A stretch of DNA of 64,000 bases from Candidatus Bathyarchaeota archaeon (GTDB lineage: Archaea > Thermoproteota > Bathyarchaeia > Bathyarchaeales > Bathycorpusculaceae): NCBI GenBank assembly GCA_963782525.1, contig CAWAKC010000003.1:224001-288000 (forward strand), read 5' to 3'. This document shows, piece after piece, positions 9,040 to 63,098 of this stretch (within the stretch, counting starts at the first letter, position 1; every line of letters begins with the position of its first letter). The position numbers and the translations under genes are program-made. A model generated the notes under the pieces. That model was not told the origin of the DNA and searched no databases. It saw only the letters and a list, made by a program, of their open reading frames with translations.

Positions 9040-9063
9040 TGAAGTAGTGCAAACACAGTCACA
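9040..9063. promoter_or_regulatory. Palindrome motif site (right half perfect) abutting TATA tttataaa
   Basis: tgaagtag-tgcaaaca-CAGTCACA-aa-tttataaa, upstream of 9130. Confidence 0.6.
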
Positions 9064-9129
9064 AATTTATAAAAGCAGTTAGCTCGCAGATGCTTATAGT
9101 GCAGAACCTTTAGTTAGGAGGTGCAATTT

Positions 9130-9330
9130 ATGCCTGAAACATCCATTAACATCACTGAGAAGCTCCAGCAGATTGAAAAAACCGCCCAAGACTACAAAGA
9201 CGCCATCGTTAACCAATTCCAAGATCTGGAAGTCGAAGTTAAAGATTGGAACTTCTCAGTTGGAAAAGCCGAAAAAGAATACACTGTTGAAGTAAACCTT
9301 AAGCTTGGCATCCGCTCAAAAAAAGCTTAA
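9130..9330 (+). CDS. Small hypothetical protein, paralog of 51303-51512
   Basis: Shared F.D.EV.V..WNF.VGK motif; GGAGGTG RBS. Confidence 0.8.
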   Translation: MPETSINITEKLQQIEKTAQDYKDAIVNQFQDLEVEVKDWNFSVGKAEKEYTVEVNLKLGIRSKKA

Positions 9331-9376
9331 GCAGCCGTCAGGTTAAACCTGCACCCCTTTTCTTTCAAAATTCTTG

Positions 9377-10621
9377 TTAACTGATTGTTTGGTTCCAATA
9401 GTAAATTTCACTGTAATTTCCAGCAGCAACCAAAAACGCTGGATCATCGTAAACTATGTCCAATTTCAAGCCGTATCTGTTAAGAAGCAGCTGTGTAGCA
9501 TTCCAAATTATTGGCGATTTGTTGTCTGGACCCCAAAAACCCCAAATCCTATCGTTCAAGTTTCGCATTCCCCACCCGTAATCCTTGGGCAACACTAAAG
9601 CTGCCTCAGCGTGGATTGAATTGGGCGATGATTTGATTACGATTTGATTCCAGAAGTTCCGAAGTACCTGGAAATGTGCATCAGTCATTGCTCCTCCATA
9701 CTGGTCAATTTGGGTTCCGTTGGAATAGTTGAAGATAATGATATATTTTGCTCCAGCATTATAAGAGTCCACCATTTGCTGGTAAATGTTATCGGGCGTG
9801 TCAAGGTAAGGTGCTTGATTGTACTTCCATGTAATAATTATGCCCCAAGTTTTATTCTGCAATGTTGCTGCTCCGCGAACAAGCGCAATTTGCTGGTCAA
9901 CACTACTGTTCCAGCCTAACTGAGCCAATATAGTTTTGTACTCTCCAACATAGTCAAACCAATAAAGAGAATAGTCGGTGGTCAAATACGATAAGTTATA
10001 CTGTTTTAGGCTGATGACGCCTAGATTTTGTGTCAACATGAAATTAAACCATGTAGCTTCTAGCGTGTAATTATCTGGAAGAATCCCGCTTATCTTTGAA
10101 TCTTGCAGTTTGTCGTAGATCTTTTTTGTGTAAATCGATGAATTCCAATGCTGATTAACGTTGAAAGTAGTTTCTTGGAAGTATTTCGTCCAATTATAGT
10201 CCATTTCGATTCCGCCTGGTTCGTCATCATAGTAAACGCTCAAAAACTTGTTTCCATAAATGTAACGTGACTCATTGAGAAATTGGGCTTTTGCAGGCCA
10301 AGCGCCGGGAGTCCAAGTTCCCAAATTAATAATCAGGTATAAGCCTGAGTTGACGGCGTAATCGCAGATTTCCCTTGCAGCAGTCAGATTATCGCTTATG
10401 GGATTTATACCGCAGTCTAAAACAAAGACGTTGGTGTAGCTTTTAACACGGTCAATCAATGCATATGCTTGGCTTGTTGTGTTGCCGCAGAAAGCAACTC
10501 CGACGTAAACTTGGTCTTTTCCAGTATTACCGCTGCTTTGCGTATAGGAGAAAAGCAGTGACACAGTTGCCGTTACTATGATCATGATTAGGATAAGCGA
10601 GAGGATATGGATTCTTTTCAA
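9377..10621 (-). CDS. Membrane-anchored/secreted hypothetical protein (possibly glycoside hydrolase-like TIM barrel)
   Basis: N-terminal TM; YYDDEPGG; Trp/Tyr/Asn rich. Confidence 0.7.
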   Translation of the reverse strand: MKRIHILSLILIMIIVTATVSLLFSYTQSSGNTGKDQVYVGVAFCGNTTSQAYALIDRVKSYTNVFVLDCGINPISDNLTAAREICDYAVNSGLYLIINLGTWTPGAWPAKAQFLNESRYIYGNKFLSVYYDDEPGGIEMDYNWTKYFQETTFNVNQHWNSSIYTKKIYDKLQDSKISGILPDNYTLEATWFNFMLTQNLGVISLKQYNLSYLTTDYSLYWFDYVGEYKTILAQLGWNSSVDQQIALVRGAATLQNKTWGIIITWKYNQAPYLDTPDNIYQQMVDSYNAGAKYIIIFNYSNGTQIDQYGGAMTDAHFQVLRNFWNQIVIKSSPNSIHAEAALVLPKDYGWGMRNLNDRIWGFWGPDNKSPIIWNATQLLLNRYGLKLDIVYDDPAFLVAAGNYSEIYYWNQTIS

Positions 10622-10803
10622 TCGCTTATTTCTCCGTAGAGTTAAGCATGTTTAGCGTAACTTTCCTTTCCGTAATTATGCATCTTTATTGAATATAAAA
10701 GTTGTAATAATATGGAATTATATTGCTATACATCTTCAGCACCAAAACAGATAAAAACGTGGCTTTGCATCATCACAGCGAACTAACCAAGAAGGATAAA
10801 ACC

Positions 10804-11007
10804 ATGCCATCTGAAATTACTGATGTTGAAAAATTCGTGGCCATGAGCGCCAAAGCAAAACAATGCCAGGTCAAAAGGCTCAAGGACACCGTAAAATTGA
10901 AGCTTCGAACAGCCAGCCAACTTTACACTTTAAAGATTGAGCCGCTGAGAGCCGACGAAATCATAAAGAGGCTGCAGTGCGAAATTAAAGAAAAAGAAAA
11001 AGAATAA
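10804..11007 (+). CDS. rpl38e: Ribosomal protein eL38 (L38e)
   Basis: MPSEITDVEKF...VKRLKDTVKLKLRTASQLYTLK matches the eL38 pattern MP..I..IK.F...VK.K.R...LYTL. Confidence 0.8.
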   Translation: MPSEITDVEKFVAMSAKAKQCQVKRLKDTVKLKLRTASQLYTLKIEPLRADEIIKRLQCEIKEKEKE

Positions 11008-11074
11008 TCAGTTTTTTACTATTTTGTTCTTTGTTCCTTATTTTAAGCTTACAATATTCTTTTGAGCTTGTTCG

Positions 11075-11788
11075 CTATATCCCTTTGTTTCCGAACTTGT
11101 TGTAATAGGCAAAATCTTCAATGTCGCGACGTACCCTCAGATACTTGGATGCCCCAGTAGGATAACCTAAACGGCAGCAATAGGCAATTTTTAGTTGATC
11201 AGGTATACCTAAAATCTTTTTAAGCTCTTTTTCCACTGGCGGCGCTGCGAAAGCACTCAGAATCTGCAAACTAATGCCCAGTGATTGAGCCATAAGCCAC
11301 ATGTTCTCCATCACACAGCCCAGACTCATGAATCCCAAAACGTCGCCTTCAGAAGCAGGTGCTCTCTTTTGGGGGTCATAAACCAAAATTAAAAGACATG
11401 GGCTACCCCTGATGGATTGAGTCAATGGCATGGGCTCGCTTTTGCGGGCAGCTTCTGACATTTTTGACGGATCTACCCATGCTGGCGGAAACATCGCTCC
11501 CAAAATTCCGGTCTTCTTCTTGAGCAATTCTTCCTTGGAGAACGAAAGCTGCTCATAATTTTCCCTTAGAAACACCTCTGAAATGCGGGATTTTACGTTC
11601 CCAATGATTTCTAAAATCTCTTTGTCTTCTACGACGATTACCTCGAAGTTTTGCATGTTATGCGCTGTTGGTGCCCATCGTCCAGCATCCAAGATTTGCC
11701 GCAAATCCTCTTTGGACACCTTTTGATTTGGGTCAAAGGGAACTCGGGCTGATTGTCTTTCTTGAATTATTCGTCGGACTTCATTCAT
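11075..11788 (-). CDS. Nitroreductase family protein
   Basis: RQSARVPF, AGRWAPTAHNMQ, ENMWLMAQSLG, LGYP. Confidence 0.9.
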   Translation of the reverse strand: MNEVRRIIQERQSARVPFDPNQKVSKEDLRQILDAGRWAPTAHNMQNFEVIVVEDKEILEIIGNVKSRISEVFLRENYEQLSFSKEELLKKKTGILGAMFPPAWVDPSKMSEAARKSEPMPLTQSIRGSPCLLILVYDPQKRAPASEGDVLGFMSLGCVMENMWLMAQSLGISLQILSAFAAPPVEKELKKILGIPDQLKIAYCCRLGYPTGASKYLRVRRDIEDFAYYNKFGNKGI

Positions 11789-12804
11789 TTTGATTCATCT
11801 TCCCTTTTTAATACTGCCCTAAAATGAACCTTCGCCGTCATCATTCGATCAAACGCAACTGCTGCTTGTTCAAGAGGAAAAACCTCTACCATTGGAACAA
11901 CATGTGTAAGAACACTGAAGTTTAGGGTATCAGCGGTGTTTCCTCCCACCCAACCACTAACGGACCGAACCGCACGCATCAGTTGTGTTGGAGAAATCTG
12001 CATAGGCTCATAAACGAAGGTAACAATGATTAGTTGTCCGTTGCGGGCAAGACCTTCAACGAGGTCTGCGATCGCCTTGCTGTTGGGAGCTGTGCAGAAT
12101 ATGGCTTTTGCACCACCAAGCTTCATCAGTTCCTCGCTGGGATTGGACTTTTCTGAGTCGATGTAGTATTTTGCGCCGAGCTTGCGCGCTAATTCTTCTT
12201 TTTCTTTGCCTCGGGAAACAACAGCGGTCTTCATGCCAAGTCTTACCGCGAACTGCAAAGCTAAATGTCCTAAGCCGCCGAGTCCTTGAATAGCCACTAA
12301 GTCTCCACCCTTTGCCGCGCTGCTCTTTATTGCTCCTAAAGTGGTTGCGCCAGCACACAGAAGTGGAGCAGCTTCCACAGAAGATAATTCGTCAGGGATA
12401 GGTGTTAAGACATCCATGCGGGCAACCATGTACTCAGCATATCCATCGTCGGTTGAAATGCCCGTTGCCAAGGGACTCTCGCAAGCCCAATAATCGCCCC
12501 TTAAGCATGACCTGCACTTTTTGCAGTGTCCGCCACGCCAGCCAACGCCGACTCGTTGCCCAACTTTCCAATAATGCGATTCTGAACCCAACTTGGCGAT
12601 CGTGCCAACAACTTCGTGTCCAGGAGTTCTTGGATACTGAAGCCCAGGGAAGCCTCCGTATTTGACGATGGCGTCGCCGTGGCATATTCCGCAGGCTTCT
12701 ACTTTTAACAGAACTTCGTGTTCTTGTGGTTCTGGAACATCATTTTGTACCAGAACAAATTCTCCGCCTGGATGATTAACCTGGATTGCTTTCATTAAAT
12801 TCAT
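11785..12804 (-). CDS. Zinc-dependent alcohol dehydrogenase
   Basis: CGICHGD, PGHEVVG, CxxCxxC structural Zn, PLLCAG, GLGGLGH. Confidence 0.95.
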   Translation of the reverse strand: MNLMKAIQVNHPGGEFVLVQNDVPEPQEHEVLLKVEACGICHGDAIVKYGGFPGLQYPRTPGHEVVGTIAKLGSESHYWKVGQRVGVGWRGGHCKKCRSCLRGDYWACESPLATGISTDDGYAEYMVARMDVLTPIPDELSSVEAAPLLCAGATTLGAIKSSAAKGGDLVAIQGLGGLGHLALQFAVRLGMKTAVVSRGKEKEELARKLGAKYYIDSEKSNPSEELMKLGGAKAIFCTAPNSKAIADLVEGLARNGQLIIVTFVYEPMQISPTQLMRAVRSVSGWVGGNTADTLNFSVLTHVVPMVEVFPLEQAAVAFDRMMTAKVHFRAVLKREDESK

Positions 12805-12872
12805 AAAATTACCTATTCAGCCTAACCGATTCTGAATATTTAAACATGCTTTTTCGTTAAACCATCCATTTT

Positions 12873-12903
12873 GTATACAAAAGCATCGCCCAACACACTT
12901 TTT
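12873..12903 (+). repeat. Asymmetric 26-30-bp repeat, copy 1
   Basis: gtatacaaaagcatcgcccaacacactttt. Confidence 0.9.
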
Positions 12904-13651
12904 GCTCTAACCCTTGCGCTCGCCTCAAAAAACTGCAAAGATAGTTAAAAATTGCGAAAAATTCGAAATCGAGCGAACTATATATAATCATACATTTAAT
13001 TTGGAACATAAATCGGGGAATCTTCGATTTTTCTAAAGCCGCAGGGCGAAATTGGAAAAAAAAGCAGGTGACTCAAGTGAACGATTAAGTTAAGTTTTCT
13101 TAGTTAGACTTCGGGTCGGACCATTAAGGCTCTCAGATGATAAAAACAGCATAAAACAACTCTCAATTATGTTTTTTTGCTAACACGCTTTGAGCCAGCC
13201 GCTGGTTTAGATGCTCCTTTGACACCATAATCTTTCATTCGGCACCTTGACCTGCTCAATTCACAGCGTTCAGACTATCTTTTTAGTCAACAGGTATGCC
13301 GATTAATTAGTTGCTCGTGTCTTCCTGCGCTAAAGTTTTGCTCTTCAGAAGCGTGAGAGCGTTTTGCTTTGCGAAAAACAATCGAATGTACATTTTTTAC
13401 ATTAAAAAGTTAAAAAAGCACTAATGTAATTAAATGAAATTAGTCATAACTGTCTATTTATTCGTCCACACTTCTGTTTTTGCAATAGGATCACCGAAGA
13501 ATAGCGAAATTTTACAAATCAAACAGAAAACTCGAAAAAATGGGGAAGACTATTTCAGAAAGGCCAAACTATAGATTTTAAACCGAAGTCAAAAAAAAAG
13601 GGTGCCGAAAAATGGTTTGGGGAAAGTAACCGAAGCTTGCAAAGGAGTTAC

Positions 13652-13681
13652 AAAATGTGTTTGGGTGATGCTTTTGTATAC
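13652..13681 (-). repeat. Asymmetric repeat, copy 2
   Basis: Reverse complement gtatacaaaagcatcacccaaacacatttt; identical to copy 4 over 30 bp. Confidence 0.93.
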
Positions 13682-13772
13682 CGTTTCCACTCATGCCCCA
13701 CCTCGCTATCAAACCCAATCTTCTATCGACATAATTTTTGCGCTCTTTGCTTCAATTTTTGGAGAACTGCTT

Positions 13773-14474
13773 ATGAGTGTTGAACGGAATCTGTTAATTT
13801 CAATCCTAAAATTAACCAAAGAAGGACCAGTTTTAATTGAAAATGTCAATAAAGAGGCAAGGATACCATCCACTGTTTCATTGGAGTTGCTGGAAAAACT
13901 GCAAAACGAAGACCTCCTTTATCTAAACAACGGCATTATAGAAGCAGAAAGTAGCAGCAGAATCAAATTAGCAGTTAAAGCAGTATCTCAAGGAGCAGTC
14001 ATCGAACATATCAGTAACCTACTTTGCTGGCAAGAGTTTGAAGAAATCGCCGCCATAGCGCTCAAAAACAACGGGTACATTGTGAAAAATAATGTAAGGT
14101 TCAAACATGGAACCAAACGATGGGAAATAGATGTGGTGGGCTGCAAAAAACCCCTGGTTGTCTGCATTGATTGTAAGCATTGGCAGCATGCAATTTCATC
14201 GTCGGCTTTGAAGCGAATAGTTGATTTGCAATCGCAGAGAACTCACGCCCTAGCGGATTCATTACCCAATCTTAAATTAAAATTTGAATGTGATAAGTGG
14301 GAAAAAGCCAAGTTTATCCCAACCGTGCTGTCGCTTGTCCCCAGCGCTTACAAATTCTACGACAACCTGCCGGTGGTCCCCGTTCTCCAGCTTCAAGATT
14401 TTATATGTCAACTGCCAGCCTATATAGGGGAATTAAAAATTTTTTCCAAAACCTTCAAAACGCTTAAGACATAA
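13773..14474 (+). CDS. Winged-helix + Mrr-like PD-(D/E)XK restriction endonuclease-fold protein
   Basis: WQEFEEIAA..L..NGY, RWEIDVVG, CIDCKHW; N-terminal HTH-like segment. Confidence 0.8.
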   Translation: MSVERNLLISILKLTKEGPVLIENVNKEARIPSTVSLELLEKLQNEDLLYLNNGIIEAESSSRIKLAVKAVSQGAVIEHISNLLCWQEFEEIAAIALKNNGYIVKNNVRFKHGTKRWEIDVVGCKKPLVVCIDCKHWQHAISSSALKRIVDLQSQRTHALADSLPNLKLKFECDKWEKAKFIPTVLSLVPSAYKFYDNLPVVPVLQLQDFICQLPAYIGELKIFSKTFKTLKT

Positions 14475-24343: not shown

Positions 24344-24367
24344 TGTTGTTGGTGGATTGCAGTCACA
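24344..24367. promoter_or_regulatory. Palindrome TGTKRYTG-N8-CARYMACA (16/16)
   Basis: TGTTGTTG-gtggattg-CAGTCACA followed by aattcatataac. Confidence 0.8.
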
Positions 24368-24413
24368 AATTCATATAACATGTTAGATACGAGAGTATTG
24401 TTAGGTGGCCGTT

Positions 24414-24575
24414 TTGGTTAAAGCTTTGTTTAGTTGCCCTTTCTGTGAAACGCCAGCTTGGCGTACGCGTTACATGCTTTGGCTTCACATGAGGGAATGT
24501 ATCAAGAAAAACCTGGAAGATAAAACGGCGAACAATGTTGTTGACTCTGCTGTTGTCAAATTAACTGACCAATAG
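24414..24575 (+). CDS. Small C2HC zinc-finger protein, 53 aa; missed by the ORF track
   Basis: MVKALFSCPFCETPAWRTRYMLWLHMRECIKKN...; AGGTGG RBS, TTG start. Confidence 0.65.
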   Translation: MVKALFSCPFCETPAWRTRYMLWLHMRECIKKNLEDKTANNVVDSAVVKLTDQ

Positions 24576-24603: not shown

Positions 24604-24906
24604 TCAGATGAGGGTTAACGTCAAGGTTGATTTGACGCTACTTAAGTTGCCAATCTGCTTGAGAATCACTTCACGCACATGATCATAGGATTCTCCAACT
24701 ACCTTCGCCACAACATCGTAGGCGCCATGCGCCAAATAAACTTCTTTTACTTCGGTGATCTTCCGTAAATCTTCAAGCGCCAAAGCACTAGCATTAGATT
24801 CGATGGTTGTGATAAAAACGAAGGCACTTCGATTTGGCTTATCCGAAACTTGTTTTGTGGGGTGGCTGCTGATTGCTGCACTAATGTCCTCAAAAACATT
24901 CTCCAA
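24604..24906 (-). CDS. Lrp/AsnC ligand-binding domain protein
   Basis: AFVFIT..EVKEVYLAHGAYDVVAKV..STLTL; GAGGTG RBS. Confidence 0.85.
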   Translation of the reverse strand: MENVFEDISAAISSHPTKQVSDKPNRSAFVFITTIESNASALALEDLRKITEVKEVYLAHGAYDVVAKVVGESYDHVREVILKQIGNLSSVKSTLTLTLI

Positions 24907-24964
24907 AATACTGCACCTCAAAAACCGTTTGTATTAACTATCTCAAGAATAAGTATTAAAGATG

Positions 24965-24988
24965 TGTTGCTGTCACGCAACTACAACA
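24965..24988. promoter_or_regulatory. Palindrome site upstream of the Lrp/AsnC gene
   Basis: TGTTGCTG-tcacgcaa-CTACAACA; minus-strand TATA ctttaata follows. Confidence 0.75.
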
Positions 24989-25574: not shown

Positions 25575-25585
25575 TTTTTTCTCCT

Positions 25586-38966: not shown

Positions 38967-39051
38967 CGCCGAGGATGGGATTCGAACCCATGCGGAACGG
39001 ATGTTCCACGGGCTCTCAAGGCCCGCGCGTTAACCACTCTGCCACCTCGGC
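38967..39051 (-). tRNA. tRNA-Ser(TGA)
   Basis: GCCGAGG acceptor; CGGGC-CTTGAGA-GCCCG anticodon arm; long variable arm; TTCGAAT loop; G discriminator. Confidence 0.95.
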
Positions 39052-41398: not shown

Positions 41399-41476
41399 GG
41401 ACCGGTCGTCTAGCCTGGTTAGGACATCTGCTTGACGTGCAGAAGGTCGCCGGTCCGAATCCGGCCCGGTCCACCA
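41399..41476 (+). tRNA. tRNA-Val(GAC), CCA encoded
   Basis: GGACCGG acceptor; TCTGC-TTGACGT-GCAGA; T-arm GCCGG-TCCGAAT-CCGGC. Confidence 0.95.
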
Positions 41477-41742: not shown

Positions 41743-41994
41743 TTAATGTACTTGTTGAGCAAATTTTCGATTTTGCGTGAGAGGACCAAAATTGTTTGAG
41801 GAAACTATTTTTTGTCCATATTGTATTCCTTTCTTTAACAAATTCAAAGCTTCAACGTCAGTAATTCCAAAAGGAAGAAAATCTTTGTGAAAGCGATCAA
41901 AGTGTAATCTTACCTTGACTATGGCAGCTTTTTCGTCATCGAAAGTACCAAAAGTATAACCGCAAGGGCATTGTCCACTTAATTTCTTTTTCAA
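41743..41994 (-). CDS. Small metal-binding protein (DUF1059-like CxC..H...H)
   Basis: CPCGYTF...VRLHFDRFH. Confidence 0.7.
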   Translation of the reverse strand: MKKKLSGQCPCGYTFGTFDDEKAAIVKVRLHFDRFHKDFLPFGITDVEALNLLKKGIQYGQKIVSSNNFGPLTQNRKFAQQVH

Positions 41995-42053: not shown

Positions 42054-42077
42054 AGTGACTGGAACCACACAGTCACA
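42054..42077. promoter_or_regulatory. Palindrome site
   Basis: AGTGACTG-gaaccaca-CAGTCACA; minus-strand TATA ttaatat leads to 41994. Confidence 0.8.
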
Positions 42078-42207: not shown

Positions 42208-42231
42208 TGGTGTTGAGCAGACGCAACAAAC
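42208..42231. promoter_or_regulatory. Degenerate palindrome site upstream of the GT4 operon
   Basis: TGGTGTTG-agcagacg-CAACAAAC then attaagg. Confidence 0.5.
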
Positions 42232-45159: not shown

Positions 45160-46053
45160 ATGAAACGGTACTCGCACAATCCTATACTTGAGCCTATAGG
45201 CGCACATGCTTGGGAATCAAACTTAGTTTTCAATGCTGCAGTCTTTGCCGCAAACAACCGCGTCCACATTCTCTACAGAGCAATGGGCACTGATAATATT
45301 TCACGCATAGGCTTAGCATCTTCTTCTGATGGCTATAACATAGATGAACGGTTACCCCTTCCTGTTTTCAGTCCAGCCAATGACATAGAAAATCAAGGTT
45401 GCGAGGACCCAAGGCTAAGTCTATTTGGCAATTCCCTAATTATGGCATACACCGCATTTGGAAGCCATTTTCAACATCAAGTCTACCAAATTGCCTTAAC
45501 ATCAATAAACACCGAAGATTTTCTAGCAAGAAGGTGGCAATGGGGCGAAAGAATTTTGGCATTCCCAGGAATCCACAATAAAGATGCTGTGCTTTTCCCC
45601 CAGAAGTTCGATGGTGATTATGTAATGTTTCACAGATTGGAACCTGACCTTTGTATCGCGCGCTCTAACGACTTGCGTCGTTGGTATGGGTTAAAATACA
45701 TCTTGGGTCCACGTGAGAAAGGTTGGGATTCTTGGAAAGTGGGAGCTGCAGGACCGCCCATGTTAGTAAATGAGGGTTGGCTTCTAATCTATCATGGAGT
45801 GAGTGTGGACCGAGTTTACTCCCTAGGAGTTGCATTATTGGATAAGAATGACCCCGAGCAAGTTCTCTATCGATCCGAAGAGCCAATACTGACGCCGACT
45901 GAAGATTATGAACGCTATGGAAAAGTTCCTAACGTAGTTTTCAGCTGTGGGCAGGTTATGATGGACGGCCAGCTTCTAATTTACTATGGTGGCGCTGACA
46001 GTGCATTATGCGTAGCTACTGTTGAGCTTTCTGAACTTTTGCCAAAAAAGTAG
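45160..46053 (+). CDS. GH130 glycosidase/mannoside phosphorylase
   Basis: VFNAA, LYRA, GCEDPR, NKDAVLFP, WLLIYHGV, VPNVVFSCG, YYGGAD. Confidence 0.92.
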   Translation: MKRYSHNPILEPIGAHAWESNLVFNAAVFAANNRVHILYRAMGTDNISRIGLASSSDGYNIDERLPLPVFSPANDIENQGCEDPRLSLFGNSLIMAYTAFGSHFQHQVYQIALTSINTEDFLARRWQWGERILAFPGIHNKDAVLFPQKFDGDYVMFHRLEPDLCIARSNDLRRWYGLKYILGPREKGWDSWKVGAAGPPMLVNEGWLLIYHGVSVDRVYSLGVALLDKNDPEQVLYRSEEPILTPTEDYERYGKVPNVVFSCGQVMMDGQLLIYYGGADSALCVATVELSELLPKK

Positions 46054-50477: not shown

Positions 50478-50642
50478 TTAGAGTTTTCTTTTGGCCTTGC
50501 CGACGTCTTCTTGGATTTTTCCTTTAACTTTTTCAGCTTCGCCTTTAATTATTTGACCAGTGTTACCCGTTACTTTGCCAGCTGCTACGCGGGTCTTTCC
50601 TTCTTCTTTTTTGAGTTTACCTTTAACTTCATCTTTACTCAT
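50478..50642 (-). CDS. CsbD-family general stress protein, 54 aa; missed by the ORF track
   Basis: MSKDEVKGKLKKEEGKTRVAAGKVTGNTGQIIKGEAEKVKGKIQEDVGKAKRKL. Confidence 0.88.
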   Translation of the reverse strand: MSKDEVKGKLKKEEGKTRVAAGKVTGNTGQIIKGEAEKVKGKIQEDVGKAKRKL

Positions 50643-50687: not shown

Positions 50688-50711
50688 TGTGACTGCTATC
50701 TGGCTCTAACA
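50688..50711. promoter_or_regulatory. Palindrome site upstream of the CsbD gene
   Basis: TGTGACTG-ctatctgg-CTCTAACA; minus-strand TATA tttaatag. Confidence 0.75.
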
Positions 50712-50937: not shown

Positions 50938-51096
50938 TTATATTCTGCGTCCTGAAAGCAGTCGGACAAGTATTATGATTACAGCAATGACAAGCAGTAC
51001 CCATATGATTGTACCAAGGTTGAAGAATACAAAGCCCAAAAGCCAAAGGACAATAAGAATCACAGCAACAACGAAAAGAAAATCAAGCGCTCCCAT
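50938..51096 (-). CDS. lmo0937-family small membrane protein, 52 aa; missed by the ORF track
   Basis: MGALDFLFVVAVILIVLWLLGFVFFNLGTIIWVLLVIAVIIILVRLLSGRRI. Confidence 0.8.
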   Translation of the reverse strand: MGALDFLFVVAVILIVLWLLGFVFFNLGTIIWVLLVIAVIIILVRLLSGRRI

Positions 51097-51143
51097 TTTC
51101 AAAAAACCTTACTTGCCTTAACTCGCCGGACTATTTTAAGATG

Positions 51144-51167
51144 TGTGACTGCCAATAACTAGCAACA
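51144..51167. promoter_or_regulatory. Palindrome site upstream of the lmo0937-like gene
   Basis: TGTGACTG-ccaataac-TAGCAACA; minus-strand TATA cttaaaat. Confidence 0.78.
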
Positions 51168-51199: not shown

Positions 51200-51223
51200 T
51201 GTAACGACAGCTTTACAGTCACA
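51200..51223. promoter_or_regulatory. Palindrome site upstream of 51303
   Basis: TGTAACGA-cagcttta-CAGTCACA then cacacttaaat. Confidence 0.65.
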
Positions 51224-51302
51224 CACACTTAAATCAACCAATGACTAGCTGTAAACTTAGTCTTGTGCAATTTTTTAGGTTTTTTAGGAGGTGCAACAAA
51301 TT

Positions 51303-51512
51303 ATGCCAGAACAAAAAATAGACGTCAAAGAACAGATACAGAAGATGGGCGAGAAATGGAGTGAATTCCAGGAGACTTGGGTTTCGCACTTCAAAGACAT
51401 GGAAGTGGATGTATTAGAATGGAACTTTGGTGTGGGGAAAACAGGCGAAGACACCATCTTTGAAATGAAAGCTAAGGTCGCTGTAAGACAAAAAAAAAGT
51501 AGAACTCCTTAA
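51303..51512 (+). CDS. Small hypothetical protein, paralog of 9130-9330
   Basis: FKDMEVDVLEWNFGVGK; GGAGGTG RBS. Confidence 0.8.
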   Translation: MPEQKIDVKEQIQKMGEKWSEFQETWVSHFKDMEVDVLEWNFGVGKTGEDTIFEMKAKVAVRQKKSRTP

Positions 51513-52186: not shown

Positions 52187-52210
52187 TGTTGTTGCATGTT
52201 AACAGTCACA
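52187..52210. promoter_or_regulatory. Palindrome site (16/16)
   Basis: TGTTGTTG-catgttaa-CAGTCACA then catgtttaat; upstream of a possible 39-aa ORF (52280-52399) and the GT2 gene. Confidence 0.8.
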
Positions 52211-52406: not shown

Positions 52407-53180
52407 ATGACAGTTTTAAAAAGTTTCGAATCATCAGTAGACTTTGTAGACAGGAGTAAGGATTTGAAGTTTCAATATCCGATTAACGAAAAACACAATC
52501 CGATGTTTAGCTCAACTCATGTAATCGTTGCAGCTTTAAATGAAGAAGCCGGAATTGGACTTACAATAGCAGAGCTTAAAGATAATCTTGATTCGCCTCA
52601 CATTTTAGTTGTTGATGGCCATAGCAGCGACAGGACCGTGGAGATTGCGAAAAATCTTGGTGCGGATATTGCCTTCCAAGACGGAGTTGGCAAAGGAGAT
52701 GCTATCGTGAAAGCGCTGAAACTTACAGACGCCGATGCAGATTATGTTGTGCTAACGGATGCTGATTTCACTTACCCTGCTAAGCATGTTCCTGAGATGA
52801 TTAAAATTCTTGAGGAGAATCCAGAGGTGGGTATGGTTTGTGGTAACCGATTTAACTCTCAATTAGACAACAAAGCGTTGATCAACCGATTCTATTTGGG
52901 AAACAAGCTCCTTGCGTTCAGCCATAATATTCTAAACGGCGTAACCCTTCATGATCCATTAACGGGTTTGCGTGTCATTCGAGCAGAAATACTTAGGAAC
53001 TTGAAGTTGAAATCGAATGGCTTTGACATCGAAGTAGAACTAAATAGTATAGTTCAGAAGAGAGGCTACAAAACAATTGAAGTCCCTATACAGTACCGCC
53101 AGAGGCTAGGTGAGAAAAAACTTAAAATGAAGCATGGAGCAACGATATTAAAAAGAATAATGACTGAGATGGAATTCTAA
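52407..53180 (+). CDS. GT2 glycosyltransferase (dolichol-phosphate mannosyltransferase-like)
   Basis: ALNEE, VVDGHSSDRT, GKGDA, DADFTYP, D..TGLR, GFDIEVEL. Confidence 0.92.
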   Translation: MTVLKSFESSVDFVDRSKDLKFQYPINEKHNPMFSSTHVIVAALNEEAGIGLTIAELKDNLDSPHILVVDGHSSDRTVEIAKNLGADIAFQDGVGKGDAIVKALKLTDADADYVVLTDADFTYPAKHVPEMIKILEENPEVGMVCGNRFNSQLDNKALINRFYLGNKLLAFSHNILNGVTLHDPLTGLRVIRAEILRNLKLKSNGFDIEVELNSIVQKRGYKTIEVPIQYRQRLGEKKLKMKHGATILKRIMTEMEF

Positions 53181-53474: not shown

Positions 53475-53801
53475 TTACGATAATACGAAGCCTATGACAA
53501 AACCAACGATTAGTCCTAAACCAAGTGGTAGTATACCCATGAGAAGTACTCCATATTGAACTGCAATAGGACCATACGTATCAGCAACACCTTTCAAGGC
53601 ACCAAGACTTAAACCGAAAAACCCAAAGTAAGCAACTATGACCAGTATAATGGCCGCTATAATAGCGATCTTTAACATTTTGTGAACTAGATAGCCCACG
53701 ACTAGTCCGATGACAAATGGAATAATCATCAAAACTAATGGTGGAATACCGCCGATGCTTCCAGAGGTGATAAAATTAATAACTTGATCTAACGCACCCA
53801 A
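53475..53801 (-). CDS. FUN14-like Gly-rich membrane protein
   Basis: FVIGLVVGYLVHKMLKIAII..AYFGF..LP..LG...GF.IG. Confidence 0.65.
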   Translation of the reverse strand: MGALDQVINFITSGSIGGIPPLVLMIIPFVIGLVVGYLVHKMLKIAIIAAIILVIVAYFGFFGLSLGALKGVADTYGPIAVQYGVLLMGILPLGLGLIVGFVIGFVLS

Positions 53802-53853: not shown

Positions 53854-53877
53854 CGTTGTTGCAATCACACAGTCACA
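53854..53877. promoter_or_regulatory. Palindrome site shared by divergent promoters
   Basis: CGTTGTTG-caatcaca-CAGTCACA with TATA-like boxes on both sides (tttaatag on minus; cttaaaat on plus). Confidence 0.82.
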
Positions 53878-54006: not shown

Positions 54007-54366
54007 ATGTCAGAAAAAATTTCAGTGAGGGAAATAATTGGAGCAATTCTAAGTGAGATAAAAGCCATCCTCAAAGAATACATGAATGAAACAGAGGCTG
54101 CTGTAAAGAAACGCCTCAAAAAACTTATAATCATAAGCATAATTAGCAGTGTTTTGATGGCGCTGGGAATTTCATTTATTGGTTCAGCTTCCTTGTTCAT
54201 ACTTATCGGTTCGTTCAAGTACCTCAGCACTTCTATGCCGGCGTGGGAGGCATTGTACATCATGGGCATCACTTCAGGCATCATAGCAGGTGTGCTCTTT
54301 TTTGGACTTTTCATCATCATACGAAATCAATTGAGATCTCCCGAAAAACCTGATAAGCAAAATTAA
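54007..54366 (+). CDS. YqjE/DUF1469 holin-superfamily-like membrane protein
   Basis: Charged N-terminal helix then two TMs with PAW.A. Confidence 0.6.
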   Translation: MSEKISVREIIGAILSEIKAILKEYMNETEAAVKKRLKKLIIISIISSVLMALGISFIGSASLFILIGSFKYLSTSMPAWEALYIMGITSGIIAGVLFFGLFIIIRNQLRSPEKPDKQN

Positions 54367-57537: not shown

Positions 57538-57655
57538 TTTTCCTGATTTTCAAAATTTAGTCCCTCATCTAATGAGTTTATTCTGTTCACTTGAGGTTAA
57601 AAACCAACAAACCCAGCCCCAGCATTTCACTTAGCATCATTTTACGAGGGAGGTT

Positions 57656-60187
57656 TTAGAATTTCACCCGCTTGTAGAAAATTTCTTTCACCACTTCGCC
57701 CAAGATTATGTAGAATACAACAATTATTGCCATCAAAACAAGAACCAAGAGCGACGGTTGGGCAAAACCAAATAGTTTTCCAAGTGGAGTGAAGGGGAAA
57801 ATAAGAGTGGCCACAACAATCGTTATGGTGGTTAAAAGCAAATACTTCCCAGGATAACTTTTGAAGAATGGTCTTCTGCTCCGAATAACGAGTACAATTA
57901 GACTTGCGGAAAGGACCGATTCTATGAACCATCCGGTCCTAAATAGCTCCTTAGGACTTTGCAGAATAAAAATCAGCACGCCAAATGCAATATAATCAAA
58001 AACTGAACTTAGGACGCCGAAAACTATCATGAAATTGCGGATGAATTTGACGTTCCAGCGCCGGGGTTGTTCAACCATTTCACTGTCTACGTTGTCTGTG
58101 CCTATGGTTGTCTCTGGGAAATCTGTCATTAGATTGGTAAGTAAAATCTGCCTAGGCAAAAGAGGCAGAAATGACAAAAAGAGCGATGCGCCTGCCATGC
58201 TGAACATGTTTCCGAAATTTGCGCTTGTTGCCATAAACACGTACTTTAATGTGTTGGCAAATGTTTTTCTTCCTTCCTTTACTCCATTAGCCAGAACAGC
58301 TAAGTCTTTTTCAAGCAAAACAATATCGGCGGCTTCTTTGGCAACATCCACTGCGCTGTCAACCGATAGACCAACATCAGCGGCGTGAAGGGCAGAAGCA
58401 TCGTTGATTCCATCACCCATGTAGCCAACCACGTTTCCTGCTTTCTTGAGTGCAAGAATGATGCGTTCCTTCTGGTTTGGCTCGACCTCTGCGAAAACAT
58501 TTACTTCATTTACTTGACGAAGCAGCGCCTCATCACTTAAGATGCGGAGATCTGGACCTGCAAGAATTTTTGGCGTTGGAAACCCTACTTGTTGACTGAT
58601 GCTGGCTGCAACCAATCGGTTGTCTCCAGTTACAATTTTTAGGGAAATTCCTAACTGTTTTAACTCTTTGACAGTTTCGGCGATTTTTGGCTTGGCAGGA
58701 TCAAATAGAACAAGGAACCCTCAGAAAGTCATGCCTGCTTCACTGTCTTTGGCGATAACTTTGTCGGAGCCGATGTCTTTGTAGGCTATCCCCAGAACGC
58801 GAAAACCTTTACTACTTAGTTCTCCAAAACGTTGTTCAATCTGGTTTTGAACCCCAGCTATCGGGACAATCGTCGCTTCGGAAGTTTTAACCAAGGTGCA
58901 TACGTCAAGCACATTTTGAAGAGCACCTTTGGTGACCATCAAATTCTTGTTGTCTTTTGTCACTAAAATGCTTAGACGCTTTCGAATAAAATCGTACGGC
59001 ACCTCATCCAGCTTCATATACCCAGAAGCATCGACCTGAGCACCACAAATAGCATCATCAATCGGATTTGTAAAACCTGTCTGATTAGAAGCATTAAGAA
59101 ACGCGTAAAGTTGCGCTTTTGGGCTTGGGTTCCCGTTAAAGTCAACTATAGACTGTATTTTTATGATGCCTTCTGTGAGGGTTCCTGTTTTGTCGGAGCA
59201 GAGTACGTTCATGCTGCCGAAGTTCTCGATGGATGCAAGCCGTTTAACAATCACCTTCTGGGTTGCCATGATCTTGGCGCCGTGAGCTAAGTTAATGCTG
59301 ATAATTGCTGGCAATAGTTGAGGGGTTAGTCCAACGGCGAGCGCTAAGGAAAAGAGAAGAGAATCTAGCACAGAACGGGCAAAATACACATTTATAGCTA
59401 AAGTAACGACCACAAGCACCAACGTTACTTCCATGAGGAGATAGCCGAAATGCCGGACTCCAAGTTCAAACTCTGTTTCAGGCGGTCTGAGTTTTAGTCG
59501 TGCAGAGACTTTGCCGAACTCTGTTTGTAACCCAGTTCCTACAATAACTGCTTGGGCGTCACCACTAACCACGTTGGTTCCCATGAAAAGACTGTTTGTC
59601 CGCTGACTAAGACCCGTTGCTTGAGGCAGAACGCCAGCAGTTTTTTCAGCAGGAAAAGTTTCGCCAGTTAAGGATGATTCGTTAACGAAGAGATCCTTTG
59701 ATTCAAGAATTATTGAATCTCCAGGAATCAAATCCCCAGCATTGAGGTGAATGACATCGCCCGGCACAATTTCCTCAACAGGTATTTCCTTTTGGTTTCC
59801 ATCGCGAAATACACTTGCTTTGGTCTGAACGATGGCCAGCAGTTTATCGACAGCGTTTGCAGCACCCCTCTCCTGCCAAAATCCGAGAAGACTGCTTATG
59901 AGGATAATCGTCAGGATAATGGCAGAATTCACGGAATCGCCTAGGAAGAATGACAGAGCGCCTGCAAAGATGAGGATGAGTATAAGTGGACTTTTAAATT
60001 GAGTTAACAAGAGTGTTAGCGTGTCTGATCTTTTCTTGGGCTTAAGAAGGTTGGAACCGTATTTTGTGAGCCTTTTTTGAGCTTCATCTTGAGTCAAGCC
60101 TTTTGAGGTCGTCTGCAGTTGCTGAAGAAGCTCAGAAGTAGGAACACTCCAAAATGAAGATTGATTCTGGCTATCTTGATTACTCAG
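57656..60187 (-). pseudogene. mtgA-like mgtA: Mg2+-importing P-type ATPase with an in-frame TGA at 58721-58723
   Basis: LTGE, VGLTPQLLP, CSDKTGTLTE, PYDFIRKR, TGDN, GDGIND, SANFGNMFS, TGWFIES. Both halves are in the same frame. Confidence 0.9.
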
Positions 60188-60525
60188 AGAAAACGCCTGG
60201 CAGTTAACTGCTATGCCTGAAACGATTAATTGAAAGCTAGTCTATAAACCGTTTTATTGAAGGTTCAGCGTTGGGCATCTACCAGTGGTTATAACTTATT
60301 TTCAAACATAATTTTCGCTTTACGAAATTAACACGAAAGGATCCAATGAAAACTAAAATGCTCCATCGGAATTTTCCGCAACAGATATATTATTAAAAAC
60401 CCGAGTTAAATTAGGTGTTTTTCAAAATATATTGAAATTACTATTGTTGGGGACATTTGATCATGATAATTCATTAGTTCATTCAATATCTTTTGATAAA
60501 CCCATATTATTAGGGCTGTGATGCT

Positions 60526-61041
60526 TTGGAAAAACGTGTTTTAGATATCGTGGATTCGTTAAGATTAAGAATTATGCGGTTGACTAGGCATAGAGCACGA
60601 GAAATTAACATCGATGTGTTTGCTAATCCCGAGAAGTACTTGCTACGGTTGCCAATAGAAAAAATCGTCGCCGATTCAAAAGTTGATCCGGAAGCCATAG
60701 AGATGTACAAGAAGAAGATCAAAAACGGAGAGAAAATTGCACCCTTAATCGTTGTTAAGCATCCAAAATTTGATGTATACGCAGTTTTAGATGGTCATCA
60801 CCGGTATTACGCTCTTTTAGAATCGGGAAAGAAAGAAGTTGATTGCGCCCTGGCCGGAGATTTCTCTAGCCTAATGTTTTACATGACTGAACAAGGTTAT
60901 TTTCAACCAAAACCGCAAACCAAAGAAGAAAACCAAAAAAAGATTATCCATTTACACGAAAATGTCCAAGATTTTCTTCAGAATTTTCTGAAAGACCCAA
61001 ACAAATTACAAAAACCCAAGAGAGAAAACCAACCAATCTAA
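60526..61041 (+). CDS. ParB/Sulfiredoxin N-terminal domain protein
   Basis: PLIVVK..YAVLDGHHRYYAL. Confidence 0.8.
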   Translation: MEKRVLDIVDSLRLRIMRLTRHRAREINIDVFANPEKYLLRLPIEKIVADSKVDPEAIEMYKKKIKNGEKIAPLIVVKHPKFDVYAVLDGHHRYYALLESGKKEVDCALAGDFSSLMFYMTEQGYFQPKPQTKEENQKKIIHLHENVQDFLQNFLKDPNKLQKPKRENQPI

Positions 61042-61179
61042 TGGTTAGTTCAGAATTTTGAACCCCTAAAAAAAGTTGACTTTGGGAGCAAGCGGAAAAA
61101 AATTGTAATGACGACTATAAGAGTGCTGAGGAAAGAATCATATGAGGGTAAAGCAAAAAGAACTATGGAGAAATGACTT

Positions 61180-61938
61180 TTGGTTGAGCAAGGTATAGAG
61201 AAAGTCGAGAACATGGTTCCGACAAAAAATGCGCCGACTAAAGTCAAAAATGAAAGGCATTCACGCCCCACTCTTCTATCCAATTTTATTCTTGGAAGTC
61301 AGGATGGTCTGGTAAATGTTTTGGGTATTCTTCTGGGCTTGACGGCGGCAACCACTGATGTCCGAATTTTCTTCGTAGCCGCTCTCGCCGCTCTGGGAGC
61401 TGAATCTATATCGATGGGAGCTGTTGCTTACACGTCGACTTCGGCGAGGCGGAGAGTCTATCTAAAAGAAGCCAATAGAGAAACTCAAGAGATGAAAGAT
61501 GTTCCAGAAATTGAAAGAGAAGAAGTACGAGGGATCTTTAGACGTTGGGGTTATGAGGGGAACGATCTTGAAGATTTGACAGAGCATATTGTCAAAAATT
61601 CGAAGGCCATGCTTGATTTGATGATGTCTTACGAACTCGATCTTGCACCGGTTGAAAAGTCTGAAGCTCGTCGAAGCGCCTTTGTTGTCGGTTCTTCCAC
61701 AATATTTGGTTCTTTCATCCCTTTATTGCCATATCTTTTCGTTGGAAAAAATATTCTTCTAGGAACCGAAGCTTCAGTGATTTTCAGCGGTGTTGCTCTT
61801 TTCTGCATCGGGATCTACGAAGCGAAGACTACAGTTGGCTCTCTCTGGAAGAGTGGTTTGCAAATGGCAACAATCGGGTTGACTGCCGGTCTTGCAGGAT
61901 TCTTGATCGGTCACTTCATAGGTGCTTTACCCCTGTAA
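61180..61938 (+). CDS. VIT1/CCC1 iron/manganese transporter
   Basis: ILG.QDGLV, A.SISMGA..Y, E.EEVR, IPLLPY. Confidence 0.9.
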   Translation: MVEQGIEKVENMVPTKNAPTKVKNERHSRPTLLSNFILGSQDGLVNVLGILLGLTAATTDVRIFFVAALAALGAESISMGAVAYTSTSARRRVYLKEANRETQEMKDVPEIEREEVRGIFRRWGYEGNDLEDLTEHIVKNSKAMLDLMMSYELDLAPVEKSEARRSAFVVGSSTIFGSFIPLLPYLFVGKNILLGTEASVIFSGVALFCIGIYEAKTTVGSLWKSGLQMATIGLTAGLAGFLIGHFIGALPL

Positions 61939-62109
61939 ATCCAGAGACTTTGTGGATTTAGTTTTTCAGATTTTTTCGCAGGATTTGTTTGGGCGATGCC
62001 ACCTTCTCCTTCAACAACGACTTTGATTCGTATTCGATACCCTGGCCACGACCGTTTTAAAGTATCTAAAGTCAATGAAATTTTGATCTATTCTTGATTC
62101 ATTATAATT

Positions 62110-62133
62110 TGTGATTGACACACCACAATAACA
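62110..62133. promoter_or_regulatory. Palindrome site (16/16)
   Basis: TGTGATTG-acacacca-CAATAACA; TATA-like attata on both sides. Confidence 0.8.
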
Positions 62134-62205
62134 AGAGATTATATCGACGCTAACTTACTCATGGTAATATAAGACCAATATGACCTGTAACCGGAGATTA
62201 TCTAA

Positions 62206-62610
62206 GTGGCAAAATCAAAATCAGTCATTGCTGTAGCGGCAATCGTAGTTATCATAGTCGCAGCTTTTGCGGTCTACGCAGGTGAAACATACCCCCGAAC
62301 TATAGTGAACACGCAGTTTTCTTTCACAATAGGCGCTGACACAAAGACAACAACGTTTAACCAACCATTCCTAGACGACAAAGTGCAAGTTATAGTGACT
62401 GTCCAAAATGGAGCGGCATTATGGCGAGCCCAAATCCGAAGCGGCGACCAAGTTATCTGGGAACATGCGGCAGCACAAGGAGAGCAGCAAAGCTACAACA
62501 GCGGCGGAATCCAATTGCCCAGCGGGAACTATAATTTCACCTTCGGAACAATCGGCTTCGGTTCACTAGATGCAACTGCGACAGTCACATCTAAAGGCGG
62601 CTTCTGGTAA
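62206..62610 (+). CDS. Membrane-anchored beta-sandwich hypothetical protein
   Basis: N-terminal TM; LPSGNYNFTF. Confidence 0.7.
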   Translation: MAKSKSVIAVAAIVVIIVAAFAVYAGETYPRTIVNTQFSFTIGADTKTTTFNQPFLDDKVQVIVTVQNGAALWRAQIRSGDQVIWEHAAAQGEQQSYNSGGIQLPSGNYNFTFGTIGFGSLDATATVTSKGGFW

Positions 62611-63074
62611 AAAATGAGGTTTTTTGAAAGAAGTCTATTTTTCTTATAATTTCTCTTTCCATAGTTGTGCCAAGGAGTTTTCCATTATCACTCAAATTGC
62701 ACGAAGGGCGTGCAGGTTTGTCAAAAGACTTTTGTAAAATTCAAGACTAACTAATTTCTACTAACAGTTGCAATGGTAATCTCTATAGAAAATTTCTGGA
62801 GGTTTTCTGAATTGGAGCTTCATGCACCCACACAATCAAATTTTCGGGAATCACAGTACACGTACCAATCCTCTTGATTTCGTGCTTTTCTTCAAAGGCG
62901 TAGTTTTTCTGGCAACTCCAGTGTTATTTTTTTTTCATTTGTTCGGGGCGTCAAAATATGAGGAAGAGAGAAAAACCGAGAGTCCTTCGGAGCTATTGTT
63001 AACTCAGATTCGCCAAATTAGAATTTCTTTCTGCGCCTTCTTTGTTTCTCCTTACGGTTTAGTTTGAATAAAAG

Positions 63075-63098
63075 TGTGACTGGCACCATGCAATAACA
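63075..63098. promoter_or_regulatory. Palindrome site (16/16)
   Basis: TGTGACTG-gcaccatg-CAATAACA then aaagtttat. Confidence 0.8.

Follow-up and report, generated by a model that had tools for sequence, protein, structure and literature searches.

The stretch of DNA analysed here (64,000 nt; hereafter, the window) corresponds to positions 224001-288000 of contig C3 in the 2.87 Mb, 12-contig genome of a Candidatus Bathyarchaeota archaeon (G000; other G numbers denote comparison genomes). It contains several genes, many of them encoding small proteins, preceded by copies of a 24-bp inverted repeat, TGTKRYTG-N8-CARYMACA, lying next to TATA-like boxes, which a preliminary description of this DNA had proposed to mark an archaeal general-stress regulon. 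A search for this motif with up to two mismatches retrieved exactly the nine core sites initially named in the window (0-2 mismatches), as compared with 0.82 ± 0.91 expected from 100 dinucleotide-preserving shuffles, none of which reached nine matches; the sites are thus commoner than in shuffled DNA. As initially described, all the window sites are intergenic, here according to a crude gene model based on codon usage that labels 80% of the genome as coding and ~20% as non-coding. Individual sites were scored with a symmetrised 28-bp position weight matrix (PWM) built from the 47 sites of the whole genome with at most one mismatch.

The two-mismatch site at 50688..50711 (PWM score 18.4), with a TATA box on its - side, lies 45 nt (all distances are given from the end of the motif arm to the start of the open reading frame, ORF) from a gene encoding a 54-aa CsbD-like protein (50478..50642, - strand; PF05532, 40.1 bits versus a cut-off of 40). 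The one-mismatch site at 51144..51167 (PWM 18.7), also with a TATA box on the - side, is found 41 nt from a gene for a 54-aa membrane protein of the lmo0937 family/DUF5670 (50938..51102, -; NF033488, 40.2 bits versus a cut-off of 30; PF18919). The exact site at 63075..63098 (PWM 22.9) precedes a gene for a DUF5752 protein (63113..63496, +; PF19027, E 9.6e-11), the true start of which is probably an ATG located ~47 nt past the arm; a paralogue of this gene in G000 (L029:1678-2034, 48% identity) is also motif-driven. The one-mismatch site at 24965..24988 (PWM 22.3) is 43 nt away from a gene for a stand-alone Lrp/AsnC RAM protein devoid of a helix-turn-helix (HTH) domain (24604..24921, -; PF01037, E 3.4e-10). 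Close to it, the exact site at 24344..24367 (PWM 25.6), which has an ATATAA-type box on the + side, faces at 37 nt a possible target, a small ORF of 56 aa with CxxC and a weak coding score (24405..24575, +).

The one-mismatch site at 53854..53877 (PWM 21.5) has TATA boxes on both sides and serves divergent promoters, an arrangement that had been proposed for some of the sites. On the - strand, at 52 nt, it faces a gene for a 108-aa membrane protein without family assignment (53475..53801), which has a look-alike behind a site of G016 (L181; read by eye), and on the + strand, at 129 nt, a gene for a 119-aa membrane protein (54007..54366); the YqjE/holin-like label initially given to the latter is backed by a weak holin-X-like match (PF07332, E 5.6e-4) below the curated cut-off. 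The exact site at 62110..62133 (PWM 23.0) lies 72 nt from a gene encoding a 134-aa protein with an N-terminal hydrophobic stretch and no known family (62206..62610, +). The one-mismatch site at 42054..42077 (PWM 21.2), with a TATA box on the - side only, is 59 nt from a gene for an 83-aa protein carrying a CPCG...HxxxH signature (41743..41994, -), possibly a zinc binder. No family match was found for it or for the other small Zn protein initially listed. Finally, the exact site at 52187..52210 (PWM 26.4; TATA box on the + side) precedes at 196 nt a GT2 glycosyltransferase gene (52407..53180, +; PF00535) similar to AglJ/dolichyl-phosphate hexose transferases (TIGR04182, 154 bits, below cut-off). 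This gene is a probable target, and GT2 genes are also found behind sites in G016, at 46 and 128 nt.

The thirteen sites initially listed included four weaker ones. The site at 9040..9063 (PWM 15.8), with a TATA box on the + side and a good match in the half nearest to it (CAGTCACA), is 57 nt from a gene for a 69-aa small protein (9121..9330, +) without any Pfam or NCBIfam family, and that at 51200..51223 (PWM 13.3), which shows the same two features, is 67 nt from a gene for a 73-aa small protein (51291..51512, +) paralogous to the former (35% identity, E 2.5e-16); both sites are plausible. The other two, at 42208 (PWM 0.7) and 44667 (PWM 4.2), are indistinguishable from the background score. 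A further low-scoring candidate that was absent from the initial list, at 3063..3086 (PWM 13.3), has a TATA box facing an alpha/beta hydrolase gene (2345-2986, -) and remains uncertain, since the control sequence already gives 21 matches of PWM ≥12 against 101 in the genome. The firm regulon members in the window are the genes at 9121-9330, 24604-24921, 41743-41994, 50478-50642, 50938-51102, 51291-51512, 53475-53801, 54007-54366, 62206-62610 and 63113-63496, with the GT2 gene as a probable one. The block of GT4, glycosidase, CBS and GH130 genes that had been counted as a member is no longer supported as such: sites 42208 and 44667, which lie inside it, fail, and the GT4 start lies 284 nt from site 42054, the TATA box of which, at the standard offset, faces the other way. 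Most of the protein names proposed from the sequence were borne out (CsbD, lmo0937 family, DUF5752, GT4, GT2, RAM-only Lrp, CBS, GH130-like and the paralogous pair), whereas neither the FUN14-like label nor the two small Zn proteins found a family match in our Pfam and NCBIfam scans.

The window is only one part of a much wider distribution. With the 8-nt spacer, the whole G000 genome contains 19 exact, 28 one-mismatch and 54 two-mismatch copies, and 8 of the 47 best (at most one mismatch) fall in the window. All other spacers from 0 to 16 nt yielded only 0-2 exact and 0-10 one-mismatch copies, as compared with 47 sites for N8; being alone enriched across the genome, the invariant 8-bp spacing noted in the window is thus specific. 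Most of the best sites (43/47) are non-coding according to the same crude gene model. Using the reversed, not complemented, genome as a control, we obtained 64 versus 3 matches of PWM ≥16, 79 versus 7 of PWM ≥14, and 101 versus 21 of PWM ≥12; as the matrix recovers its own 47 training sites, only the excess over 47 adds new information. This excess over the control indicates that G000 has roughly 60-80 true sites. The element is a genuine genome-wide cis-element with a fixed core-promoter geometry and not a local oddity.

That geometry is strict in its details. The motif reaches one base into the spacer (Y after TG, R before CA) and, past the arm, A-rich positions +1/+2 are followed by an A/T-rich block at +6 to +11, such that the consensus reads, from distal to proximal, TGT[T/G][G/A]YTG(Y)-N6-(R)CA[G/A]TCACA, then 5 nt (usually AA-n-n-Y) and the TATA box. 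An A/T-rich hexamer of the type TT..TA starting between +4 and +8 (mode +6) occurs on at least one side of 52 of the 64 sites of PWM ≥16, as compared with 14.3 ± 3.4 (maximum 23 in 200 draws) for random intergenic positions; the remaining 12 mostly have ATATAA-type boxes at the equivalent place (read by eye). The gap between arm and TATA box measures 3-5 nt, close to the 2-4 nt proposed initially, and likely start codons lie 23-130 nt past the arm in most cases, with the ORF starts mostly at 30-130 nt. Reading the same 64 sites by eye, we saw none located downstream of, or over, the TATA box. Generic G000 promoters aligned on their TATA hexamer show AA at -5/-4, which equals positions +1/+2 past the arm, and consequently the element abuts the AA resembling the TFB recognition element (BRE) and does not replace it. 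The initial placement of the palindrome at the BRE position was, in this sense, imprecise, as it adjoins the BRE-like element rather than occupying it. Assuming that the TATA box begins near -30, the element would extend from about -59 to about -36.

The 24-bp element is, moreover, not the plain palindrome initially described, being directional toward the TATA box. In one-sided G000 sites, the proximal half belongs to the TGTG(A/G)YTG class in 35/38 cases and the distal half, which is often TGTTGYTG, in 14/38 (Fisher 6e-7). The same proximal bias was found in 9/9 one-sided sites of G056, a member of another genus, and in 16/18 of G016 (read by eye). Overall, both arms carry a similar number of mismatches (0.46 versus 0.50). 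These features bear on what reads the element. A fixed distance from the TATA box might be expected from an extended or alternative BRE recognised by a specialised TFB paralogue, an option already raised in the preliminary description, and G000 does have 8 TFIIB-repeat matches, that is, about 4 TFB genes. However, a BRE is short and one-sided, whereas here both arms are equally conserved, the far one lies ~25 bp from the TATA box, and some sites serve both directions. The number of TFB paralogues is also unrelated to motif presence: the motif-rich G005, G007, G008, G015, G017 and G019 have 4 TFIIB-repeat matches, as do the motif-free G018 and several genomes of other families. We therefore consider a TFB-read element very improbable. 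An inverted repeat with an 8-nt centre could also correspond to the end of a mobile element, a recombination site, an RNA hairpin or a cruciform instead of a protein operator. However, the spacer and flanks are unconserved save for the TATA box, a position upstream of that box implies that the element is not expected in the transcript, orthologous genes retain it across genera, and the only Rfam matches in the window were two tRNAs (38967-39051, -; 41399-41473, +), which makes this explanation extremely unlikely.

The preliminary description had suggested looking for the motif in other Bathyarchaeia, and we indeed found exact sites in 22/24 other genomes of the same genus (1-25 each, with 5-25 in 20 of them; 0-1 for the reversed-pattern control). 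In other families of the order, 1/16 genomes contained a single match. A draw of 121 genomes from the family (≥85% completeness, 55 genera) included 19 genomes from 9 genera with at least 5 exact sites (up to 37), the control giving 0 in all 121, and, from a class draw of 151 genomes (≥90% completeness), 3/123 genomes outside the family had a match, one each. Thus, the motif is common in 9 genera of a single Bathyarchaeia family, whereas matches in the rest of the class do not exceed chance. Its targets are partially conserved across species and genera. In G016, for which 20 of the 25 exact sites and one further site were retrieved, the targets common with G000 include TatA, two GT2 glycosyltransferases, a fasciclin+zf-C2H2 protein, Flg_new_2, two KGG proteins, a DUF559 protein and an NTP transferase, and several unnamed targets resemble those of G000 (visual comparison without alignment). 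A scan of 11 proteins found behind 14 sites of G056 showed that HSP20 and a GYD protein recur. The element is therefore kept upstream of orthologues in the same genus, in 7 genera, in G016 and in G056. It combines the traits of an archaeal operator or upstream activating sequence: an over-represented, spacer-specific motif, at a fixed position relative to the TATA box and BRE, and conserved before orthologous genes. We propose, with a probability that we estimate at about 0.55 for the reading as a whole, that it is the operator of a dimeric sequence-specific factor controlling a regulon of ~60-80 promoters.

Two of the comparison genomes with 5-6 exact sites on few contigs, G053 (C39, with four sites within 4 kb) and G102 (C126 and C178), show a peculiar pattern. 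All their sites belong to one narrow variant of the TGTTACTGTTG...CAACAGTCACA type, and they may represent a remnant or a local sub-regulon; the regulator candidate described below was not found in these genomes.

Pfam and NCBIfam scans of 65 + 24 candidate first genes in G000 provided clues about the content of this putative regulon. Stress-type targets include CsbD, the lmo0937 family/DUF5670, a KGG-repeat protein, HSP20, MsrA and MscL, in agreement with the general-stress flavour initially attributed to the downstream genes, together with BrkB/YihY, TatA, SUI1, glyoxalase, cupin and YCII proteins. Among regulatory and small-domain proteins, we found two DUF5752 proteins, a zf-AN1/M50 protease, a CDGSH protein and five stand-alone RAM (AsnC ligand-binding) or GYD-like proteins; those at 24604-24921 of the window, L002:1669-1947, L007:1277-1552 and L156:1376-1609 lack a DNA-binding domain and could be modulators of full-length Lrp-type factors or small-molecule binders. 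Envelope and metabolic targets comprise two fasciclin+C2H2 proteins, a cupredoxin, GT2 and GT4 glycosyltransferases and OTCase, among others. Several targets form paralogous sets: the pair 9121/51291, the DUF5752 pair and a set of four proteins with CxCG..HxxxHK. From this gene content, the signal would appear to be a general stress or dormancy cue. Two observations weigh against such a simple view, namely that about half of the targets could not be assigned to a family and that some are metabolic (urease gamma with a urea transporter, OTCase, an AIR synthase-like protein and the NTP transferase). The urease site (C4:181922, L018) separates the gene of the urease gamma subunit from that of a urea transporter in divergent orientation, and the same switch may therefore also control nitrogen scavenging. 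As urease and cupredoxin are among the targets, a thaumarchaeal origin of the genome was considered, but no amoA match was found (the control genomes gave none either), and close relatives of two of the proteins are named as Candidatus Bathyarchaeota/Bathyarchaeia.

The preliminary description had stated that the regulator was not evident in the window, and the best candidate is indeed encoded elsewhere in the genome. One of the G000 targets is a 78-aa PF14947 (HTH_45) protein (C9:119522-119755; L027:1325-1558, -; 44.7 bits versus a gathering cut-off of 25.5), the ATG of which lies 42 nt past a site with a TATA box at +6, and a 74-aa HTH_45 paralogue (C1:335123-335344) has the same promoter arrangement. 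PF14947 is present in all but two of the 120 relatives listed. Within it we distinguished two subfamilies that are ~30% identical, A (74-81 aa) and B (111-122 aa, with an N-terminal extension), taking as A/B genes those with E ≤1e-17 or ≥70 bits. An oriented site is found in the promoter of 18/18 A/B genes in the same genus (17 genomes) and of 15/18 such genes in 7 genera (12 genomes, each with at least one such copy), amounting to 33/36 overall; the corresponding figure for lower-scoring HTH_45 paralogues was 0/13 checked. The distribution follows the motif as well: in the family draw, the A/B gene was found in 15 genomes, all with ≥5 sites, that is, in 15/19 genomes with ≥5 sites and 0/102 with ≤3 sites. 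In the genus sample it occurs in 17/23 motif-bearing genomes, and the motif-free genomes of the genus, G006 and G018, lack HTH_45 altogether.

The AlphaFold2 model of the candidate (pLDDT 89.9) predicts a winged helix followed by a 17-residue C-terminal helix (H10-16, H23-30, H34-46, E50-53, E56-59, H61-77), in keeping with the Sso10a fold, a winged helix with a long C-terminal helix (alpha1-beta1-alpha2-alpha3-beta2-beta3-alpha4). Its best match in the PDB is Sso10a itself (1r7j; TMq 0.84, root-mean-square deviation 1.7 Å with Foldseek; profile match E 7e-13), and its score against the NCBIfam Sso10a family (NF053610), 46.2 bits, is under the cut-off of 60. According to a published study (PMC4941522), Sso10a dimerises by means of an antiparallel coiled coil, the two ends of which each bear a winged helix. 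By analogy, such a geometry could explain half-site centres 16 bp apart. On these grounds, we consider that the odds are about even, or slightly better, that the cognate factor is an autoregulated 74-122 aa Sso10a-fold winged-helix protein (PF14947).

Several results weigh against this identification. An HTH gene carrying the site in its own promoter, of the kind sought following the preliminary description, does exist, but the A/B gene was not found in seven motif-bearing genomes of 89-100% completeness: G016 (25 exact sites, 94% complete), G020 (15, 95%), G022 (11, 95%), G143 (22, 89%; best match 62 bits), G146 (5 exact and 15 at ≤1 mismatch, 96%), and G053 and G102 (5-6 sites each). Genome incompleteness of 0-11% can account for only some of these exceptions. 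The site was present in the promoter of 0/7 HTH_45 paralogues checked in G016, G020 and G022, no DNA-binding family was detected among 19 G016 targets, and a search by synteny beside the RNase H-like neighbour in G016, G020, G022, G006 and G018 did not find a lost B-type gene. In addition, A and B differ along the putative recognition helix except for N33 and Q36, and any lineage-specific target gene would co-occur with the motif too. The neighbourhood of the B-type genes is of interest in itself. In other species, they are transcribed divergently from a gene for an RNase H-like (RVT_3) protein, which in some cases is fused to a glyoxalase. At C5:13498 (L019), G000 keeps the RVT_3 gene, the site and a B-like promoter (tcggtttaag) without any B ORF, which suggests that the B gene was lost in this lineage with two A genes.

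Alternatively, the operator might belong to another, non-autoregulated factor, the A/B proteins being conserved regulon members, for example factors at a second level of control or chromatin proteins produced under stress. The seven genomes just mentioned are those expected in such a case, and a precedent exists for DNA-binding genes that are linked to sites yet have no site in their promoter: 6/8 genes of the so-called type-C HTH_45 group lie within 1.2 kb of a site, as compared with 0.54 expected (0/5000 permutations reach 6). Sso10a proteins have also been argued to be architectural and not sequence-specific (PMC4941522). However, among all the targets inspected (65 + 24 in G000, 19 in G016 and 11 in G056) we found no other DNA-binding gene under the motif across species, with two exceptions. 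One is a 90-aa type-C HTH_45 gene of G000 that lies 147 nt away from a site, on its TATA-less flank, and the other a TrmB gene of G056, the family of which does not track the motif. The 1.5 kb upstream of each TrmB-family gene of G000 are free of sites, and the motif-free G006 and G018 are also those without any HTH_45 gene. We regard a different, non-autoregulated factor as a serious contender, although a somewhat less probable one than the Sso10a-fold candidate.

Other potential regulators were discarded. Type-C HTH_45 proteins (L026-like) are present across the order, including motif-free families, and are absent at E ≤1e-10 from the motif-bearing G017. The small Zn-type proteins with CxCG...HxxxHK occur in only 6/121 family genomes, and a 599-aa TrmB-PAS protein encoded beside site C10:122309 in 7/121, mostly as partial domain matches. 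The TrmB family that includes the G056 gene is found in 78/121 genomes irrespective of the motif; a TrmB gene regularly carrying the site or co-occurring with it, as would be expected for a TrmB-controlled regulon, was not observed.

Whether the bound factor would activate or repress transcription can be approached from the geometry of the sites. The core promoters look canonical (AA at -5/-4 and TTAAAT- or TTTATA-type boxes) and may be active alone, which keeps as a rival a repressor bound just upstream of, and partly over, the BRE-like element that would block TFB and free the promoters under stress. In that case, the A/B genes would be negatively autoregulated, the commonest arrangement of small winged-helix factors. 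As the arm ends 5 nt from the TATA box, a BRE of 6-7 nt might begin within the final bases of the arm. However, the distance to the TATA box is fixed within about ±1 nt in at least 52/64 sites and the orientation is strict, neither of which is needed for occlusion, and no site seen by eye lies over the TATA box or between it and the gene start. Archaeal factors known to act from upstream sites as activators include Ptr2, TFB-RF1, TrmBL1 and SurR. Likewise, ArnR/ArnR1, which binds upstream of the BRE at -43 to -84, is an activator (PMC6396743). We consider the repressor unlikely. The fixed directional placement, the lack of sites over or behind the TATA box and the positive-feedback wiring of the candidate fit a contact with TFB/TBP, and an activator, as judged from geometry only, is the option that we find reasonably probable.

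We can thus envisage a mechanism in which a dimeric transcription factor would bind the 24-bp operator at about -59 to -36, beside the BRE-like AA. By analogy with Sso10a, an antiparallel coiled-coil dimer might allow two winged helices to reach half-sites 16 bp apart. The bound factor would contact TFB/TBP from just upstream of the BRE and activate transcription, including that of its own gene in a positive feedback. The operator would drive in this way ~60-80 promoters, mostly of small stress-type proteins, as well as a structured small RNA present in three or more copies.

This small RNA candidate lies outside the window. Behind sites with the proximal flank TCATTATTTAT we found no ORF, and in its place a conserved element of ~75 nt with a 22-bp stem and a conserved CU-rich loop (CCCTCTCTCTTCCTGA). 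The sites concerned are C1:314688 (-), C1:381257 (+) and C11:121846 (-) in G000 (L006, L008 and L033), and the element was also found in G016 (L173) and G020 (L190). Five sequences showed compensatory changes in 7/22 stem pairs, and no Rfam match was obtained for the element. G000 contains exactly three copies, each located 80-90 nt from a high-scoring site. It is therefore a candidate motif-driven small RNA, with a loop that resembles an anti-Shine-Dalgarno sequence.

Ptr2, TFB-RF1 and GvpE are archaeal activators with upstream sites just before the BRE/TATA, and promoter-abutting operators are already known as a kind in archaea. A similar arrangement is that of the ArnR box of Sulfolobus acidocaldarius, TCGAC-N5-GTCGA, two of which, at -43 to -84, are needed for ArnR/ArnR1 (PMC6396743). 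Both systems share an inverted repeat directly before the core promoter, a winged-helix factor (a candidate in our case) and a link to starvation or stress (from gene content in our case). They differ in that we found another sequence in a single unit of 24 bp, the half-sites of which are centred 16 bp from each other, ~60-80 promoters with strict orientation to the TATA box instead of one or a few, and a candidate that is a soluble 74-122 aa protein, ArnR being membrane-bound. With Sso10a and Sso10a-2 of Sulfolobus (1r7j, 4hw0), the candidate shares the winged helix plus C-terminal helix and the Pfam HTH_45 family; its C-terminal helix, of 17 residues in the model, is less long and it scores under the Sso10a_fam cut-off. 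Moreover, Sso10a is treated in PMC4941522 as a chromatin protein without known specific site, whereas the candidate is tied to a defined operator.

The commonest half-site here starts with TGTGA and its mirror ends with TCACA, as in the CRP/FNR-type site, TGTGA-N6-TCACA. However, the pentamers are 14 nt apart and not 6, as the preliminary description had already recognised when separating the motif from CRP spacing, and the candidate does not have a CRP fold. The Thermococcales glycolytic motif, a TrmB-family operator at the TATA box, is also a long palindrome beside that box, the effect of which depends on its position, but no TrmB-family gene of G000 carries the site. In terms of content, the closest parallels are the general-stress regulons of SigB in Firmicutes and RpoS in enterobacteria, with which the G000 targets share CsbD, the lmo0937 family, KGG-repeat proteins (GsiB/YciG-like), a small heat-shock protein, MsrA and MscL; the difference is that, as predicted from the sequences, no sigma factor would be involved here and an upstream operator would act on TBP/TFB promoters. 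In a literature search at the level of listings, we did not come across this motif, any stress regulon of Bathyarchaeia or any DNA sequence specifically bound by Sso10a-type proteins. The new elements are the motif and its directional form, together with the stress-type regulon and the Sso10a-fold candidate.

The most ambitious version of these ideas would be a sequence-specific Sso10a-fold master activator of a sigma-free general-stress programme in soil and sediment Bathyarchaeia, acting through a directional 24-bp site with its stronger TGTG half facing the BRE, recruiting TFB/TBP, and switching on its own gene, 60-80 small protective proteins and CU-loop RNAs that could silence ribosome-binding sites, possibly as a heterodimer of paralogues that would explain the two half-site classes. 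This complete scheme is tentative and, in all its parts, rather doubtful. If it were true, Bathyarchaeia, a highly abundant group of uncultured archaea in soil, peat and sediment, and one in which gene regulation is almost unstudied, would possess an archaeal equivalent of the bacterial general-stress regulon built without sigma factors, and the Sso10a/HTH_45 family would have its first specific DNA site. The circuit is concrete, with a defined operator, ~60-80 promoters, a conserved stress-type core and a candidate regulator of 74-122 residues. Its strict directional BRE/TATA geometry makes it a good model for contacts between activators and TFB/TBP, and the operator can be used as a marker to annotate unnamed small proteins and the new small RNA as stress-linked.

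Two additional gene groups deserve mention. Small proteins with the pattern CxCG..KILVVPD..HxxxHK have 11 matches in G000, yet they are present in 6/121 family genomes. They adjoin Sso10a-like type-C HTH_45 genes and several are motif-driven, as exemplified by C2:33484-34299, C2:64549-65507 and C9:86755-87522 (L158, L150 and L026, on contigs C2 and C9); together with the type-C HTH_45 genes they look like an expanding two-gene cassette. In the window, the GH130 protein (45160-46053) is closest to beta-1,2-mannobiose phosphorylase (292 bits versus a cut-off of 450) and its gene is preceded by those of the GT4 glycosyltransferase, a 351-aa protein without family and a CBS-pair protein. This GT4-CBS-GH130 block, for which a link to the motif is unsupported here, may be a sugar or compatible-solute cluster.

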